Shown: one piece after another, positions 16,375-32,977 of the stretch
How the letters are laid out: each line of letters starts with the position of its first letter
Numbering within the stretch: position 1 is the stretch's first letter
IMG/VR virus record: IMGVR_UViG_2713896908_000011
Span: 1 to 32,977 of that record
Length of the DNA stretch: 32,977 bases
Origin: a virus
Taxonomy: Duplodnaviria; Heunggongvirae; Uroviricota; Caudoviricetes
Reading direction: 5' to 3' (one strand)
Made by a program: the position numbers and the translations under genes
The notes under the pieces: generated by a model
Databases searched by the model: none
Told to the model about the DNA's origin: nothing
The model's input: the letters and a program-made list of their open reading frames with translations, nothing else

Positions 16375-17127
16375 TTATCTTGTCACTTTTCTCAACAGTG
16401 CTTCTGCATATGCTTCTTCCTGCCAGCACTTTGTAACCAGTTTATCAATAACATCAGCATACCCCTTGTACCACTGATAATCCGTCAGGTCCGGTACCAG
16501 TTTCTGGACATGATGCCGCGCCAGTGTGGTTGGTAAACGGCTAAACCGATTTCCATTGCAACGCCCACAAATCTTATAAACCGGCGTGCCATGAAGCCGG
16601 GTTCTTTTTTCATCCAGGACAATACCTTTACCCTTACACCCTCTGCACGCTGTGCTGACTTCTCCCTTACCATGGCAATGCTGACATAGTTCCTTCACCC
16701 ACTCTTCCTTGATAACAGATTCCCCGCTTCTGGAGTGTTTCACCACTTCGCGCAATACATTATGAAATCCAGTACCAGCACAATGCTCACAGCGAGCCTT
16801 ACTTGCCGCAGACCTGGAATAATCAGCAAAGGCAAAATTCACAAGGTAAGGGATGATCTGTAACCGGGTTTCTTCACTCAATTTATTCAATGTCGGGTTA
16901 TCCAGTGCCATCGCGTAATTGAGCAGACCTTCGATCGCAAACTGAGGATCCTGAACACCAACTTTTGCCAGGAATAAGGCAAAACCCAGTGGTGCTTTCG
17001 ACTGCACCATCCCCTGCGCAGCCATCACATCTGTAATTGTTAAACCACCCGAGCCTGTCGCCGGTGCGTCATCACTCAATTTTGGAGATTTTGGGGAGTA
17101 ATATTTTGGTAAGGCTTCAAGGTTCAT
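16375..17127 (-). CDS. Q: late-gene antitermination protein Q (phage 21/82-type family)
   Basis: 250 aa with multiple CxxC pairs (CEHCAGTG, CQHCHGKG, CRGCKGKG, CGRCNG) typical of zinc-binding Q proteins; positioned between the early/replication genes and the lysis genes. Confidence 0.8.
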   Translation of the reverse strand: MNLEALPKYYSPKSPKLSDDAPATGSGGLTITDVMAAQGMVQSKAPLGFALFLAKVGVQDPQFAIEGLLNYAMALDNPTLNKLSEETRLQIIPYLVNFAFADYSRSAASKARCEHCAGTGFHNVLREVVKHSRSGESVIKEEWVKELCQHCHGKGEVSTACRGCKGKGIVLDEKRTRLHGTPVYKICGRCNGNRFSRLPTTLARHHVQKLVPDLTDYQWYKGYADVIDKLVTKCWQEEAYAEALLRKVTR

Positions 17128-19431: not shown

Positions 19432-20085
19432 TCATGCCGCCATCTCCCTGACCAGTTTTTCTGCCTGCTGGCGAACCTGCGCCAGAAAGGCCTCACCACA
19501 TGCCTCAAGTTCATCGCGCCCGATGTAGCTGATTGCCGGTCCCTTCCAGGTCTTGTCGAAAACAGCAATAGCACCAGCAAAGAAAGCGCCTGTCGGCACC
19601 TGCTTCTCGTCCTTCGGGATAAACCAGGCAGGCAGTTCAAAACCAATACGCCCGCGAATAAAAGCAATATGGTCCGCATCTTCCGGCCACCACACTTCAC
19701 TGGTGGCAGCTTTGATCAGGAAAACATAGCGCCCGCCTTTATCACGCATGGCACTGGCATGTTTCATGATGTAACGCATGCCGGTGATGTATTGCCCCTC
19801 ATGCTGACTGGCGCGGCTGTATGGGGGATTACCAAAGGCAGCACCTTTAAGCTCCGCAAGACGTTCTGACCAGTCATGCGCCAGCGCGTTGTCTTCCGCC
19901 GTGTAATACGCGGCACATTTGGCGTTATCACCGTCGGTGAACAGATCCAGAACAAACGGGCCAAACAGGGTGTTAATTCCCCAGAAAATGTTGTCCGGCG
20001 TGCGCCACTGATCGCCCACTTCCTTCAGTTCATGGGCTGGTTTGTTCCGCAGTTCCACCAGCGCCTGGCAATATTTATTACTCAT
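19432..20085 (-). CDS. phage N6-adenine DNA methyltransferase (Dam-like)
   Basis: Motif IV FGNPPYSR (the DPPY/NPPY signature of N6-adenine methyltransferases). Start set at the Met whose ATG overlaps the upstream gene stop (TAATG); the track start at 20118 is the alternative. Confidence 0.8.
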   Translation of the reverse strand: MSNKYCQALVELRNKPAHELKEVGDQWRTPDNIFWGINTLFGPFVLDLFTDGDNAKCAAYYTAEDNALAHDWSERLAELKGAAFGNPPYSRASQHEGQYITGMRYIMKHASAMRDKGGRYVFLIKAATSEVWWPEDADHIAFIRGRIGFELPAWFIPKDEKQVPTGAFFAGAIAVFDKTWKGPAISYIGRDELEACGEAFLAQVRQQAEKLVREMAA

Positions 20086-20579
20086 TAAGCCCCCACGTAA
20101 TTCCCTGACAGATACCACTCTTCACCCGATGCAGCGCGCTTGCTGCTTTTCCGTAAGCACCGCTCACGACGCGCCAGAAAATTGTTTCGTTCTGGCTGGG
20201 AGTGGCTTTCACGGAATGCCGCCATCCACACCGTTGCAGCACGACGGTATAAGCCCCTGGACTCCAGTTCTTCAGCCTGGCGGGTCAGGCACAAAATCAC
20301 TCGGGGATCGTTAGTGCCGACATAGAAATTGCGCACAGGTCTGGTTTCACGAACTGGTTGTGGTTCCGGCTCCTGCGCTCTCTCAGTCAGGCGCGGGAAA
20401 TGTCTGCGTGTATCTCCTTCACAACGGTGAGCCACACGCCCACTCTGACGTAACTTGCTTGCTGACTGCAGAACGCGCTGCCGTGAGTAACCTGCAAAAG
20501 CATCCGCAATGTCTCCGGAAGTACACCCCGGATGGGCTTCAATGAATTTCTGAACGTCATTCAAAAGACTCATAATCAC
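20085..20579 (-). CDS. PerC-family transcriptional regulator homolog
   Basis: C-terminal ...AEELESRGLYRRAATVWMAAF...ERNNFLARRERCL resembles the PerC/Pch signature (LE..GLWRRAA..W). The N-terminal ~60 aa look like an extra winged-helix-type segment. Confidence 0.6.
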   Translation of the reverse strand: MIMSLLNDVQKFIEAHPGCTSGDIADAFAGYSRQRVLQSASKLRQSGRVAHRCEGDTRRHFPRLTERAQEPEPQPVRETRPVRNFYVGTNDPRVILCLTRQAEELESRGLYRRAATVWMAAFRESHSQPERNNFLARRERCLRKSSKRAASGEEWYLSGNYVGA

Positions 20580-21517
20580 CCCCTGAATCCTGCCGGGATC
20601 TGGCTGTAGTCCACGTTGTCGTAACTGGCTTTGAAATACGAGTCTTCGCGTTTTTCGGTGTACGTGCTGACGGACGGCGATAAGCGCAGGGAAAGCTCAT
20701 CCCATTTTTCCCGCAGCTTCGACGGGCTGAGCACGTTACGGCACCAGAACGGATCGCGACTGACGCGGCTGTACATCTCGCAGATTTGTTTGTGAGTACG
20801 ACCATCCTGCACACACATCAGGCGAATTTCGTTTGCCCAGGCTGTCCAGTTCGGTTCTTTGGGACGAACCACCTCGCCGTCACATTCGGCGGCCTGCTCG
20901 TACAGGGCGATGATTTTTTTCCAGAGCCACTGTGCGCAGGTCAAATCATCCTGCGTTCCCCACTGGCGCTTTTTAGGGCTGAATACAACCGCATCAGGAT
21001 GGCGAGTTAAAAACTCCTGTTCAGCCGTCTGCGTGTCCGGTTGCGAAGCGTCCGGACGAGAAGGTTTTTTATCTGACGGATCATGTTTTGATTTTACTGA
21101 CGGATCCCCGCCAGATTCTGACGGGTGAAAACCCGCTTTTTTGCCAGATTTTGACGCATCAAATTTTGACGGGTCAGATTTTGATGCGTCAGATTTTGAC
21201 GGGTCAGAATCTGACAGTTGAGAAAAAGCTGCAGCCTGAAGCTTCGCAACGTTAAGCTGATAAACATTCGACGCATTGCGGTTACCCTGGCGACGCGCCT
21301 TACGCGTTAACCAGCCTTCTGCTTCCAGCCGTGCGATAGCCATTCTGACGGTACTCATCCCCGCGCCAATCTGGCGGGCAATGGTTTCAATTGATGGCCA
21401 GCACACACCTTCGTCATTACTGAAATCAGCCAGGCGGGCCATAATTGCCACGCTGGATAATTTCATGCCTGATGCAGCGCAACCATCCCATACATAGCCG
21501 GTTAATTTAGTACTCAT
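20576..21517 (-). CDS. O: replication initiation protein (lambda O-like replisome organiser)
   Basis: N-terminal HTH (...SIETIARQIGAGMSTVRMAIARLEAEGWL...), a central low-complexity repeat (SDPSKSDASKSDPSKFDASKSGKK) encoded by DNA iterons, and a C-terminal domain; same layout as lambda O with an intragenic ori. Confidence 0.8.
   Translation of the reverse strand: MSTKLTGYVWDGCAASGMKLSSVAIMARLADFSNDEGVCWPSIETIARQIGAGMSTVRMAIARLEAEGWLTRKARRQGNRNASNVYQLNVAKLQAAAFSQLSDSDPSKSDASKSDPSKFDASKSGKKAGFHPSESGGDPSVKSKHDPSDKKPSRPDASQPDTQTAEQEFLTRHPDAVVFSPKKRQWGTQDDLTCAQWLWKKIIALYEQAAECDGEVVRPKEPNWTAWANEIRLMCVQDGRTHKQICEMYSRVSRDPFWCRNVLSPSKLREKWDELSLRLSPSVSTYTEKREDSYFKASYDNVDYSQIPAGFRG
21072..21219. repeat. 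iteron array (candidate origin of replication) inside the O-like gene
   Basis: Tandem ~15-bp direct repeats read directly: cagattttgacgcat (21145), caaattttgacgggt (21160), cagattttgatgcgt (21175), cagattttgacgggt (21190), cagaatctgacagtt (21205), plus degenerate copies at 21072..21126. Confidence 0.75.
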
Positions 21518-22748: not shown

Positions 22749-23375
22749 ATGGAAACGGTTGGTCAGCGTATAAAAGCTCTGAGAAGAGTTACCAGAACGT
22801 CCCAGAAAGAATTGGGTAAATTTTGTGGAGTAAGCGACGTTGCTGTGGGGTACTGGGAGAAAGACATCAATACCCCTGGTGGGGAGGCACTTTCGAAATT
22901 AGCGAAGTTCTTCAATACGTCAATAGATTACATTCTTTATGGTGCTGAGTTTGAAGGCAAACTCGTCACAAACATGCGCAGAGTTCCTGTAATATCGTGG
23001 GTTCAGGCTGGGCAGTTTACTGAGTGCAGGGCAGCAGAAGTGTTTAGTGAAGTGGACAAGTGGGTAGATACATCATTAAAGATTGGTGATAACTCATTTG
23101 CATTAGAGGTTAAAGGTGACTCCATGACTAACCCTAATGGCCTCCCAACAATACCAGAAGGCGCAACAGTGATTGTAGATCCAGATGCAGAACCTCGTCA
23201 TGGAAAAATAGTCATCGCTCGACTTGATGGAACAAACGAAGCTACAGTAAAAAAATTAGTCATCGATGGCCCTCAAAAGTTTTTAGTGCCATTAAATCCT
23301 CGGTATCCCAACATCCCTATCAATGGTAATTGCCTTATCATTGGTGTAGTCAAAGGAGTTCAATACGAACTCTAA
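22749..23375 (+). CDS. cI: CI-like repressor (N-terminal XRE HTH, C-terminal S24 LexA-like peptidase)
   Basis: N-terminal HTH (QRIKALRRVTRTSQKELGKFCGVSDVAVGYWEKD), candidate Ala-Gly cleavage site (VQAGQF), catalytic Ser in GDSM and Lys in ATVKKL. Confidence 0.9.
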   Translation: METVGQRIKALRRVTRTSQKELGKFCGVSDVAVGYWEKDINTPGGEALSKLAKFFNTSIDYILYGAEFEGKLVTNMRRVPVISWVQAGQFTECRAAEVFSEVDKWVDTSLKIGDNSFALEVKGDSMTNPNGLPTIPEGATVIVDPDAEPRHGKIVIARLDGTNEATVKKLVIDGPQKFLVPLNPRYPNIPINGNCLIIGVVKGVQYEL

Positions 23376-29546: not shown

Positions 29547-30656
29547 ATGGAAAACAAGACCAATAAGGAAAAAAGTGTAAGAATTAGGCTGGCTTTTAAA
29601 AGATGGCAGCGAAGTGTTTCCCGTCAAGGGAAAGAGTATTCGCAGTTTCGTCAACAAAAAAAATCTCAAAAGAAAAAAGATAATACCTTTATTCGGTTTC
29701 CATCTGAGTTTTCAATATATTCACCAGATAAGCCTAATTTTTTTGCGCACTCTCTACACTCGATAAATCACGTCAGGAATAAAAAATACAATCCTGATGA
29801 GAGATTATATTTAGATTTTACAAATACAAAAACAATAAAAATGGCAGCATTAGTAATACTTTATGCCAGTGTTGAAACTTCAATTCGTAAAGGTTTATCG
29901 TACAGATTATTATTTTCAACAGATTTTAAAGTCAATCAGCTTTTAAGAGACTCGGGTCTTGTCGCCTTATGTCGGGGCGAAAAATTAAAACCTGTCTTCG
30001 AAAACGTTGAAAACTTGCCCATTATTAGCGGGGTAGGAGGAGAATATAGAGATGAGATTATAGATTTCATCCAGAAAGAAATTTATAAAAACAAGATGAA
30101 ACCTGAAACAGAACATACATATGCAGATGCTGTTCAGGAAGCAATAAATAATGTTGGTTTACACGCCTATCCGCATAAAAATAATGATGAGAAACGATGG
30201 TGGCTTGCATGTCACGTAATTCATGACCAGCTGTATCTTGCTATATATGATGAAGGTGTTGGTATACCTGAAACTGTAATGCAAAAGACATGGTTTATGA
30301 GTACGCTCAAATCAAAATATCCAGATCTAAAGGTTGCGGTTAACGAAGAACTTGAGAGAATAGGTTTAGGTTATAAAGAGCGCTCTAAAGTAAAAGTTGG
30401 TATTGTTTCTGATGCAGTAAAAATAGCAATTTCTATGATTGGAGACGTAACCGGTACAGCCAATGATAAACATGGTCAAGGAAGTAAGAGTATTAAAGCT
30501 CTAGTACTAAATAATGAACATGGAAACCTTTGGATTTACAGTAATTTAGGTATGTTCAAGCTTTCTAATAAGAAAGGTGATAAAATTAATGAGTTAACTC
30601 ATAAAGTACCAGGTACTTTAATTCAGTGGAACATCAAGGTCAGCTATGAAGACTAA
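29547..30656 (+). CDS. GHKL-superfamily ATPase/kinase, RsbW/SpoIIAB-like (anti-sigma-factor-type HATPase_c) with novel N-terminal domain
   Basis: 369 aa with AGGAG Shine-Dalgarno. Bergerat-fold motifs in the C-terminal half: N-box AVQEAINNVGLHAY (compare EA.TNA..HAY of RsbW/SpoIIAB), G1-box IYDEGVGIP, G2-like ERIGLGYKE. The N-terminal ~190 aa are Lys/Arg-rich and not recognised. AT-rich codon usage. Confidence 0.7.
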   Translation: MENKTNKEKSVRIRLAFKRWQRSVSRQGKEYSQFRQQKKSQKKKDNTFIRFPSEFSIYSPDKPNFFAHSLHSINHVRNKKYNPDERLYLDFTNTKTIKMAALVILYASVETSIRKGLSYRLLFSTDFKVNQLLRDSGLVALCRGEKLKPVFENVENLPIISGVGGEYRDEIIDFIQKEIYKNKMKPETEHTYADAVQEAINNVGLHAYPHKNNDEKRWWLACHVIHDQLYLAIYDEGVGIPETVMQKTWFMSTLKSKYPDLKVAVNEELERIGLGYKERSKVKVGIVSDAVKIAISMIGDVTGTANDKHGQGSKSIKALVLNNEHGNLWIYSNLGMFKLSNKKGDKINELTHKVPGTLIQWNIKVSYED

Positions 30657-30978
30657 AAACATCAATGTTATCAAAGACTTCAACAGTAAGCCTTACGGGC
30701 GCTATCCAGACGATGGGGCAGGCTGTGGGGAAAACTTTCGCAAATATCTGGCAGGCTTTCTCAAAGAGTATGATTTAGTTCATGTTGAGTTGACTGGATA
30801 TAACCGTTATGGGCGTTCATTTATTGATGAAGCGTTTGGTGGCTTGATCCGAGTAGAAGGCTACACATTAAGCGAACTTAAGAAAAAACTAACTTATACT
30901 CATAAAGATATTAAGAGTATTGAGACCTTGATTGATGAACGATTGAATAAGGCAGAGAGTGATGCAGGAAGAGGTTAA
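30646..30978 (+). CDS. DUF4325/STAS-like small protein (putative anti-anti-sigma-type partner of the GHKL protein)
   Basis: 110 aa, ATG overlapping the upstream gene by 11 nt. Core VHVELTGYNRYGRSFIDEAFGGLIR matches the DUF4325 STAS-like pattern (LDF.GV...S.SF.DE.FG.L) as I recall it. Confidence 0.6.
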   Translation: MKTKNINVIKDFNSKPYGRYPDDGAGCGENFRKYLAGFLKEYDLVHVELTGYNRYGRSFIDEAFGGLIRVEGYTLSELKKKLTYTHKDIKSIETLIDERLNKAESDAGRG

Positions 30979-31456
30979 TTATACAAGTATTGTGATTGCT
31001 ATAATTGGTTGGCTTGTTGCGTCTTATTTCAACAATAGAGCATTCAAGCGAAATGATATTTCAAGGCAAAAGGATAAAATCTGTCAGCAAATAGAATCTC
31101 TTTTTGATAATGTTTTAGATAAGCTCTCTTCTAGAGATACTAAAGAATTAGAGCTGGATAATTTTTTAGCCTCCAGTGTCTCATTAATTGAAATGCAGCT
31201 GTCTCATTTATCACAAAGGATTGGTAAGAAATTATTATGTGATGAACAGTTGTCATCTATCAGATCAACACCTTTAGACTTGTTAAGCAAAAAGTGTGAT
31301 TATAAAAATGAACTTCATGAGATGAAGTATTCAATATTAGAGGAAATTGAAGGTAATTATACAAAATGGTTTTTTGATAGTTACTCAAAAAGATTCAAAT
31401 CCATCTTTGCATCAAAAAGAAGCACACCTAATACTGATCTGAATAGACTATCTTGA
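30962..31456 (+). CDS. single-pass membrane protein (candidate effector of the cassette)
   Basis: Overlaps the upstream stop by ~17 nt. N-terminal TM helix (SIVIAIIGWLVASYF) followed by a ~140-aa helical soluble domain with no recognisable motif. ATG at 30962 preferred over the GTG at 30959. Confidence 0.6.
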   Translation: MQEEVNYTSIVIAIIGWLVASYFNNRAFKRNDISRQKDKICQQIESLFDNVLDKLSSRDTKELELDNFLASSVSLIEMQLSHLSQRIGKKLLCDEQLSSIRSTPLDLLSKKCDYKNELHEMKYSILEEIEGNYTKWFFDSYSKRFKSIFASKRSTPNTDLNRLS

Positions 31457-31753: not shown

Positions 31754-32977
31754 TCAGTTGGGGTCTGAGCTAATACAAGCAACTATCAATTCAACCCTCT
31801 CCCACCATACCTGGTAGGCTTTACGCTGTTCTTCTAGATAATCGCTCTTGTCATAAACCTGCCATCCCCCTGGCAACTTATGACCAAGCATAATTTCTGC
31901 AATATGAGGCGCAGTAAGATCAGAAAAGTTTGTTCGTGCTGTTCGCCTCAAATCATGAAGAGACCAATGAGGGAATTGATACCCCAAACGTCGCCATGCG
32001 AACTGCATTAAATTGTAAGGCAGCGACTGCAATGATGTCCGACCAACTGGCTCCCTGCTTCCTTCCTTAGTAAAAAGCATATCGGAACCGTTGTTCATAG
32101 AGATAACGTATTTTATAAGCTCTTCAACCGGCCCAATAATGGGCCGCTTTAGTGGTTCGCCTGTTATCTCCCCTGTCTTATGTCGTTCTGGCGGTACAGT
32201 CCATACCTTATTAATGAAATCAAAATCGTCCACCCTAGCGGTAATTAGCTCTGAACTACGGCAGCCAAAATGCAACAATAGTTTAATGAAGGCCCGGTAT
32301 TTAGGAACCATTCGAGAACCATCGATCGCAGCATAAAGGATTTTAATTTCATCATGTGTCAGAAACCGTTTCTTCTGACCTTTACGGATATCCATATCTT
32401 TACCTGTGATATCCGACAGCGGGCGAGTTTCAATGAGCTTTCTCTTATACGCCCAGACATGGGCCTGCTTTGCGTTAATTAGCAATCGGTCAGCTATTGC
32501 TGGAGTCTTAGTGCTAAGAGGCTCCAAGACCTCTAACCAATCATGCAATGTAGCTGCATCGTGAGGGATACTCCCGATTTTAGAGAACAGGTGCAGTTCA
32601 AATGAGCGGAGTATCTGCTCAGCACCTTTTTTATTTTTTACACAATATGCTTCATACCAAGCACGGATCACAGACTCTACAGTCATGGCTTCAGTAGCTT
32701 TGCGTTTTTCTGCCTGCTTGACCAATCGTGGATTGCGGTTTGACTCGAGTTCACCACGGAGACGGATAACTTCTTCTCTGGCCTCTTTTAATCCAGTTGC
32801 CGGGTAAGTTCCGATATCAAGACGCTCACCTTTCCCTGCCCATTGATAACGATATTGGAACACTACGCGACCTTTCGGTGATACTCTGACAGACAGACCA
32901 TCACGATCGGATTTAACCAAAACCTTATCACGTTCCTTTCCAACAACTGAACGCAACCACGCATCAGACAGCGCCAT
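31754..32977 (-). CDS. int: tyrosine-type site-specific integrase (P4-like, with N-terminal arm-binding DUF4102-like domain)
   Basis: 407 aa. N-terminal MALSDAWLRSVVGKERDKVLVKSDRDGLSVRVSPKGRVVFQYRYQW... is P4-integrase-like. C-terminal catalytic elements HDLRRTART (HxxR) and a Tyr in ...GGWQVYDKSDYLEE. The ATG sits exactly at the window edge, so the true start may lie beyond. Confidence 0.9.
   Translation of the reverse strand: MALSDAWLRSVVGKERDKVLVKSDRDGLSVRVSPKGRVVFQYRYQWAGKGERLDIGTYPATGLKEAREEVIRLRGELESNRNPRLVKQAEKRKATEAMTVESVIRAWYEAYCVKNKKGAEQILRSFELHLFSKIGSIPHDAATLHDWLEVLEPLSTKTPAIADRLLINAKQAHVWAYKRKLIETRPLSDITGKDMDIRKGQKKRFLTHDEIKILYAAIDGSRMVPKYRAFIKLLLHFGCRSSELITARVDDFDFINKVWTVPPERHKTGEITGEPLKRPIIGPVEELIKYVISMNNGSDMLFTKEGSREPVGRTSLQSLPYNLMQFAWRRLGYQFPHWSLHDLRRTARTNFSDLTAPHIAEIMLGHKLPGGWQVYDKSDYLEEQRKAYQVWWERVELIVACISSDPN

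Follow-up and report, generated by a model that had tools for sequence, protein, structure and literature searches.

This report concerns yfdN, a gene on the minus strand of a 32,977-nt stretch of viral DNA (IMG/VR record IMGVR_UViG_2713896908_000011, positions 1 to 32,977), which was analyzed at its full length and is referred to below as the window. The window is a lambdoid prophage of Escherichia coli that looks complete. Its open reading frame (ORF) at 20085-20579 had been predicted from the DNA sequence to encode a prophage-borne homolog of the PerC regulators, which activate virulence genes of the LEE (locus of enterocyte effacement). The gene and the parts of its product are listed here, with YfdN residue numbers counted from the ATG at 20573.

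20085..20579, minus strand: yfdN coding sequence, 164 aa from the RefSeq GTG start, stop codon TAA at 20085-20087
20394..20573, minus strand: N-terminal winged helix-turn-helix (HTH), residues 1-60, assigned from the AlphaFold2 (AF2) model and Foldseek, with weak sequence matches
20307..20393, minus strand: proline/glutamate-rich linker, residues 61-89, predicted to be disordered from its low predicted local distance difference test (pLDDT) scores
20127..20306, minus strand: PerC/ANR-type three-helix domain resembling tetratricopeptide repeats (TPR-like), residues 90-149, assigned from the AF2 model and Pfam PerC
20226..20255, minus strand: GLYRRAATVW motif, residues 107-116, read from the sequence and aligning with G(F/L/C)(Y/W)RRA(A/S) of PerC/Pch
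20088..20126, minus strand: C-terminal tail, residues 150-162, with a subfamily-specific W.L(A/S)G.Y.G motif

The window ORF is an allele of yfdN, an early gene of lambdoid prophages of the SfV/mEp460/CPS-53 type. Its product is identical at 161 of 164 positions (98%, three substitutions) to YfdN of E. coli K-12 (b2357), encoded in the cryptic prophage CPS-53; an alternative start at the in-frame ATG at 20573, two codons after the GTG, would yield 162 aa. Of 5426 complete E. coli genomes, 2674 (about half, K-12 included) carry yfdN DNA at 95% identity or above. The gene was also found in 49 phage records, among them SfV (orf40), SfII, SfIV, mEp460, Ayreon and Shiga toxin phages (Stx2a and Stx2c), and the copies on Stx2a and Stx2c phages are near-identical. 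RefSeq labels the matching gene "yfdN: PerC family transcriptional regulator" and yfdN has been named a "K12 unique PerC homologue" (PMC5931665); the family label is therefore already standard and already known, and the call of a PerC-type gene at this locus is a rediscovery of existing annotation.

The ORF at 20085-20579 is a real gene under purifying selection. The ratio of nonsynonymous to synonymous polymorphism (pN/pS) was 0.14, calculated from 61 distinct alleles among 71 same-length copies taken from viral contigs, and full-length two-domain relatives of YfdN exist down to 25% identity. On this ratio and the conservation in distant relatives, a chance ORF was rejected as a candidate. 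The databases do hold many truncated, fused or internally deleted yfdN variants, and the CPS-53 copy of K-12 resides in a cryptic prophage, both of which would suit a chance frame or decaying pseudogene with an accidental PerC-like motif. Set against the pN/pS value, the distant full-length relatives, the occurrence of the gene in the sequenced genomes of phages including SfV, mEp460 and Ayreon and the significant PerC profile statistics given below, such an explanation has a negligible probability.

Sequence comparison makes the PerC homology of YfdN solid at the level of the domain. Pfam PerC (PF06069) scored 36.1 bits on YfdN (gathering score 22.6; E = 7.7e-9) and aligned residues 98-149 (20127-20282) with model positions 5-56 of 90; each of the 24 relatives in the YfdN-family alignment also matched this model individually at E ≤ 0.01. 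PerC from pMAR2 and PchA, PchD and PchE from the Sakai genome were fetched by coordinates for comparison. The PF06069 matches of PerC, PchA and PchE began at position 1 and ended at 89-90, that of PchD spanned 6-89, and the scores were 124-153 bits. In a joint alignment of the five sequences YfdN was 23-35% identical to PerC and the Pch proteins across a core of ~50 residues and unrelated to them outside it, and 11 residues were invariant (A100, L103, E104, G107, R110, R111, A112, W116, R129, R136 and C139 of YfdN). By hhalign, the 24-member alignment matched PerC/PchA/PchD/PchE over 54 columns with 98% probability (E = 1.7e-13). The perC gene of the EPEC adherence factor (EAF) plasmid of enteropathogenic E. 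coli (EPEC) was not reached by tblastn of the YfdN C-terminal domain against plasmids at E ≤ 0.01.

The original prediction that the prophage carries a PerC-family homolog is thus borne out by a PF06069 match above the cut-off, a profile-profile match to PerC/Pch and the same name in RefSeq. Two of the checks proposed with it, a profile search against Pfam PerC and an alignment to PerC and Pch, came out positive, the first with a significant match in place of the refuting absence of one and the second with the common ~50-residue core. The GLYRRAATVW resemblance from which the prediction started is PerC-like and, judged by the PF06069 and hhalign scores, is more than a chance motif; its placement is to be corrected, as the PerC-like part is residues ~90-149 and not the extreme C-terminus. 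YfdN has neither the full-length PerC domain of ~90 positions nor the small single-domain form (89-104 aa) of the family. Model positions 57-90, the last third, are absent from it and an unrelated tail stands in their place in the alignment, and the protein of 162-164 aa includes a predicted winged helix and a linker.

The structure of YfdN was modeled by AF2 with a 24-sequence alignment (mean pLDDT 82.7). In the model the N-terminal domain has a winged-helix fold, consisting of helices at residues 3-13, 19-25 and 31-44 and a beta-hairpin at 47-60, with block pLDDT means of 89-94 over residues 1-60. Foldseek searches of this domain against the PDB returned winged helices of ArsR, MarR, BlaI and MecI (1.6-2.2 Å over ~60 residues) at a probability of 1.00, yet with no E-value below 1e-3. 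Sequence matches for the HTH were weak (PHROG MarR, 6.6e-5; NCBIfam BilQ, 0.0035), and MarR_2 was matched by only two of 24 YfdN relatives. The winged helix is kept with high model confidence throughout the family. In the linker the 10-residue pLDDT means were 50 (residues 61-70), 48 (71-80) and 76 (81-90); its length differs among relatives, and the natural variant P0078 lacks it.

The C-terminal half of the model consists of helices at residues 90-105, 109-122 and 126-143 followed by a low-confidence tail. The fold of the helical domain is TPR-like, and such folds are classic modules for binding proteins. G157 and G161 of the tail are near-invariant in the 24-sequence alignment, model confidence there being low, and the W.L(A/S)G.Y.G motif has no counterpart in PerC/Pch. 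Among solved structures, a sequence search of the PDB returned no YfdN relative; a PerC/Pch profile run against PDB sequences gave only a marginal MarR match (E = 0.03) and no solved structure of the PerC family. Some natural rearrangements of the gene were observed: P0105 looks like an in-frame fusion of a Rep winged helix with the YfdN C-terminal half, and in P0023 and P0062 other HTH domains are fused ahead of most of YfdN. Such variants suggest that the winged helices recombine and that the domains are modular.

The gene lies in the early region of the prophage, and the predicted prophage setting is confirmed by the presence of integrase, CI-like repressor, cro, cII-like, RusA and Q antiterminator genes. 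The features of the window that bear on yfdN are the following.

20576..21517, minus strand: replication initiator (Rep), 313 aa, with an HTH_36 winged-helix N-terminus (Pfam HTH_36, 4.7e-10)
21145..21215, no strand assigned: iteron-like 15-bp tandem repeats, 4.3 copies, inside the Rep gene (Tandem Repeats Finder, period 15, 83% matches)
19432..20085, minus strand: Dam, phage N-6-adenine methyltransferase, PF05869 (Pfam Dam, 9.9e-46)
22749-23375: CI-like repressor, window gene
16375-17127: Q antiterminator, window gene
31754-32977: integrase, window gene

The TGA stop codon of Rep overlaps the GTG start of yfdN (GTGA), and the TAA stop codon of yfdN shares one base with the ATG of Dam (TAATG), in agreement with the RefSeq coordinates in the matching E. 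coli locus, L001. No promoter-like site was found directly upstream of yfdN. Because the frame overlaps both of its neighbors and has no such site in front of it, yfdN is probably transcribed from pR after induction and not in the lysogen. In the SfV records (U82619.2 and NC_003444.1), -35 and -10 signals labeled 'dam' lie under the match to yfdN (orf40), and Dam may also have its own promoter in this region. The iteron-like repeats, CAGATTTTGACGGGT, occur as four to five units and encode a DPSKSDASKSD repeat at the protein level; by analogy with ori-lambda, which lies inside gene O, they are the presumed origin of replication. The other prophage genes of the window are cro, the cII-like gene (CP76 family), DUF4222, RusA, KilA-N and DUF968, and a small gene that RefSeq assigns to the LexA family in L001, of which the window copy is without a Pfam match.

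The association of yfdN with the initiator extends to distant relatives. A set of 83 loci was gathered from IMG/VR and other assemblies, in which YfdN-like proteins are 25-34% identical to that of the window. An HTH_36 initiator lies upstream of the YfdN-like gene in 81 of these, almost always with the 4-nt stop/start overlap. The downstream gene varies among the 81 distant loci that have a downstream ORF: it encodes an MT-A70 methylase in 67, a 261-aa protein in 10, a LexA-like protein in two, RusA in one and another product in one. The methylase 3' of the distant genes (e.g. locus L007, 1912-2580) is of the MT-A70 type and not Dam PF05869, and the 261-aa protein (locus L016, 4462-5247, and nine similar loci) has no Pfam match. 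Conversely, a YfdN-like ORF was present in 75 of 80 loci chosen for a near-identical Rep, and was of the full 164 aa in 70.

Given this pairing, YfdN could serve the phage replication module as an accessory factor, working with the HTH_36 initiator at the origin in the slot held by lambda P or P22 gp12 in other lambdoid phages. The constancy of Rep upstream while the downstream gene varies, the 75 of 80 near-identical-Rep loci with a YfdN-like ORF and the fact that no P, DnaB or DnaC-like gene was recognized among the annotated genes of the early-right operon all speak for such a role. Other observations run the opposite way. In the genome of phage cdtI, yfdN is reduced to an in-frame remnant of 31 residues between rep and dam, and in Citrobacter phage phiNP the same type of Rep is followed directly by Dam; yfdN combines freely with different Rep alleles, with a homology break ~72 nt upstream of it; the conserved C-terminal tail of Rep is retained in phiNP, which has no YfdN; and Pfam, NCBIfam and PHROG scans gave no similarity to a helicase loader (lambda P or DnaC-like). 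We regard the accessory replication role as unlikely. An obligate replication partner was rejected on the cdtI and phiNP genomes, neither of which has an intact yfdN. As an intact copy is missing from two phage genomes that have this kind of module, yfdN is probably accessory; the viability of cdtI and phiNP is assumed from their records being phage genome entries and, for cdtI, also from the prophage being reportedly inducible.

Two further observations were made at this junction. The yfdN remnant of cdtI (NC_009514, locus L170, 2570-2670) is an in-frame deletion that leaves 31 aa. The last ~24 residues of Rep (..YFKASYDNVDYSQIPAGFRG; window 20576-20650, minus strand) are conserved among otherwise unrelated Rep alleles, and this tail, YDNVDYSQIPAGFRG, marks the mosaic boundary that travels with yfdN. 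The Rep C-terminal domain has no Pfam match. Given that phiNP, a phage without yfdN, retains the tail, this may be a peptide on which a host factor docks.

The C-terminal unit of YfdN also resembles the ANR family. NCBIfam ANR_neg_reg (NF033650) matched residues 96-142 with 23.6 bits (E = 3.4e-5), below the cut-off of 32; PerC, PchA, PchD and PchE scored 13.6-18.2 bits in the same ~45-residue region, likewise sub-threshold. P0187, a distant two-domain relative of YfdN, passes the cut-off with 36.2 bits and also matches Pfam PerC, and tblastn with this relative as query returned PerC-annotated genes only. The ANR signature of A10, E14, A22, W26, A29...R..C (PMC4983702) has the same spacing as A100, E104, A112, W116, A119, R135...C139 of YfdN. 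When the C-terminal AF2 model, which has the three-helix fold of ~55-60 residues seen in ANR proteins, was compared with a viral structure library, the best named matches were two phage "ANR family transcriptional regulators", which superpose at 0.6 Å over 55-56 residues with target template modeling scores of 0.89-0.90, the Foldseek E-value being only ~1e-2. PerC and ANR look like remotely homologous families, which is a lead and not a result. Within the literature searched, no paper names PerC, the ANR family and Aar side by side.

From this likeness it could be argued that the winged helix does not bind DNA and that YfdN, in the manner of the ANR anti-activators, acts purely through protein-protein contacts by sequestering an AraC-family activator or H-NS. 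The sub-threshold ANR_neg_reg match of 23.6 bits, the passing score of P0187, the two ANR-named proteins among the best viral structural matches (one at 0.6 Å root-mean-square deviation over 56 residues), the shared A, E, A, W, A spacing and the protein-binding character of a TPR-like fold are all consistent with it. The window protein, however, falls below the curated ANR cut-off and scores higher with PerC, above the cut-off of that model, and the conservation of the winged helix with high model confidence across the family argues that this domain matters. Such a mode of action is improbable on balance.

A broader proposal may be drawn from the same data, which we consider tentative and doubtful as a whole. 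YfdN-like proteins would form a distinct and conserved two-domain family, a winged helix joined to a PerC/ANR unit, that bridges PerC and ANR into one superfamily and is genetically tied to HTH_36 initiators of lambdoid phages; as an early phage function they would, during induction, anchor a module of the anti-silencing or anti-activator type to DNA or the origin, and PerC/Pch and ANR proteins would be stand-alone derivatives of that module.

The remaining part of the original prediction, a Pch-like coupling of the prophage to LEE genes or other host virulence functions, finds no support: the link of YfdN to LEE virulence is unsupported. That YfdN might activate LEE1/ler or other host virulence genes as Pch does is suggested by the PerC core that it has in common with PerC and PchA, by the near-identical copies on Stx2a and Stx2c phages and by the choice of Uhlich et al. 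to delete yfdN from a K-12 ler::lacZ reporter strain (PMC5931665). The protein departs from the activators in several respects. It lacks PerC positions 57-90, the last third of a domain that PerC, PchA, PchD and PchE match end to end; it carries an additional winged helix; and its identity to PerC/Pch is only 23-35% over ~50 residues. Even with full-length domains, PchD and PchE affect ler minimally or not at all (PMC5931665). About half of the complete E. coli genomes, K-12 included, carry yfdN, and it lies in a repressor-controlled early operon, unlike pchA, which forms a unit of its own on the opposite strand, in the Sp4 late region. A virulence activator of this kind is very unlikely.

Considering the observed homology, two-domain architecture and its conservation, operon position and purifying selection, we lean, by a small measure, towards YfdN being an induction-time, DNA-tethered modulator of transcription or an anti-silencer, and not a virulence switch of lysogenic conversion. 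This whole role is inferred from the anatomy of the protein. Transcription of yfdN from pR would occur only after loss of the repressor, together with the replication initiator and Dam; the winged helix would tether YfdN to DNA; and the PerC/ANR-type unit would contact or displace a regulatory or nucleoid-associated partner, by analogy with the action of Pch on H-NS complexes and of Aar on H-NS and AraC-type activators. Pch relieves silencing by H-NS/StpA/Hha at LEE1 by binding DNA (PMC4764244), and Aar binds H-NS and AraC-family activators directly (PMC5570504, PMC4983702).

Several points weigh against a DNA-tethered modulator. The winged-helix assignment comes from a predicted fold and weak sequence matches; no Pfam HTH model matched the window YfdN at E ≤ 1, and the recognition helix varies among relatives in the 24-sequence alignment. 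The literature searched contains no experiment on the molecular function of YfdN. The constant pairing with the initiator could point to a replication role. Even for PchA, among the best-studied members with a PerC-type unit, co-precipitation with H-NS was reported not to occur (PMC4764244). Indirect data on yfdN comprise an overexpression match in a glycogen screen, a computed interactome cluster labeled "negative regulation of transcription" and a yfdN2-containing UTI89 fragment in a filamentation screen; the PADLOC scan gave nothing meaningful for YfdN.

The practical value of these results is mainly for annotation. As yfdN has only the PerC core, an extra domain of the DNA-binding type and an early-operon position, the label "PerC family transcriptional regulator" should not be taken to denote an activator of LEE or virulence. 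If the side observations hold, namely the PerC-ANR superfamily link and the pairing with the initiator, they would offer a testable handle on a PerC-type module in its apparent native phage context, and could help explain the action of Pch and ANR proteins on H-NS-type silencing. The two-domain family, the initiator pairing and the PerC-ANR bridge may deserve the notice of researchers working on PerC/Pch/ANR mechanisms.

Elsewhere in the window, a cargo block of three genes (29547-31456, plus strand) lies beside the integrase and encodes proteins of 369, 110 and 165 aa. The 110-aa protein has a DUF4325 STAS-like domain and the other two are without a Pfam match; the block had no PADLOC hit. 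The whole block was present in only six of the 5426 E. coli genomes and may be an uncharacterized defense or accessory module.

The closest counterparts of the window gene are K-12 yfdN, orf40 of SfV and the mEp460 homologue, which share its neighbors: upstream lies a replication gene or what remains of it (yfdO), downstream a methyltransferase gene (yfdM). CPS-53 is a 10-kb remnant, whereas the window prophage has an integrase, a repressor, a full replication gene and Q. PerC of the EPEC EAF plasmid and PchA/B/C of enterohaemorrhagic E. coli (EHEC) prophages, all activators of LEE1/ler, have in common with YfdN the core A..LE..G.(Y/W)RRA...W...R...R..C. They are single-domain proteins of 89-104 aa that cover the whole 90-position model, and YfdN differs in adding a winged helix, a linker and a tail of its own, with 30-35% identity over the core.

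PchD and PchE, the EHEC group 2 and 3 PerC homologues, belong to the family, reside on mobile elements and do not act as activators of LEE (PMC5931665). Their identity to YfdN in the core is 23% for PchD and 35% for PchE, and they are single-domain proteins with a full-length PerC domain. Overexpression of PchE represses curli and csgD and enhances flagellar expression (PMC6265319, PMC7369912), and nothing comparable is known for YfdN. In the Sakai genome pchE (Sp7; locus L006, 11773-12042) follows the primase and single-stranded DNA-binding protein genes of a P4-like prophage, which recalls the position of yfdN, and pchD (SpLE1; locus L005, 9878-10144) follows ibrA and ybdM; other PerC-family genes, too, sit beside DNA-metabolism genes of mobile elements. 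The ANR proteins, such as Aar and Rnr, resemble YfdN in their ~55-residue unit of three helices, whose conserved A/E/A/W/A...R..C residues have identical spacing. They are stand-alone proteins of less than 10 kDa that accompany AraC-family genes (PMC4983702), whereas YfdN is an 18 kDa protein with a domain of the DNA-binding type and accompanies a replication initiator.
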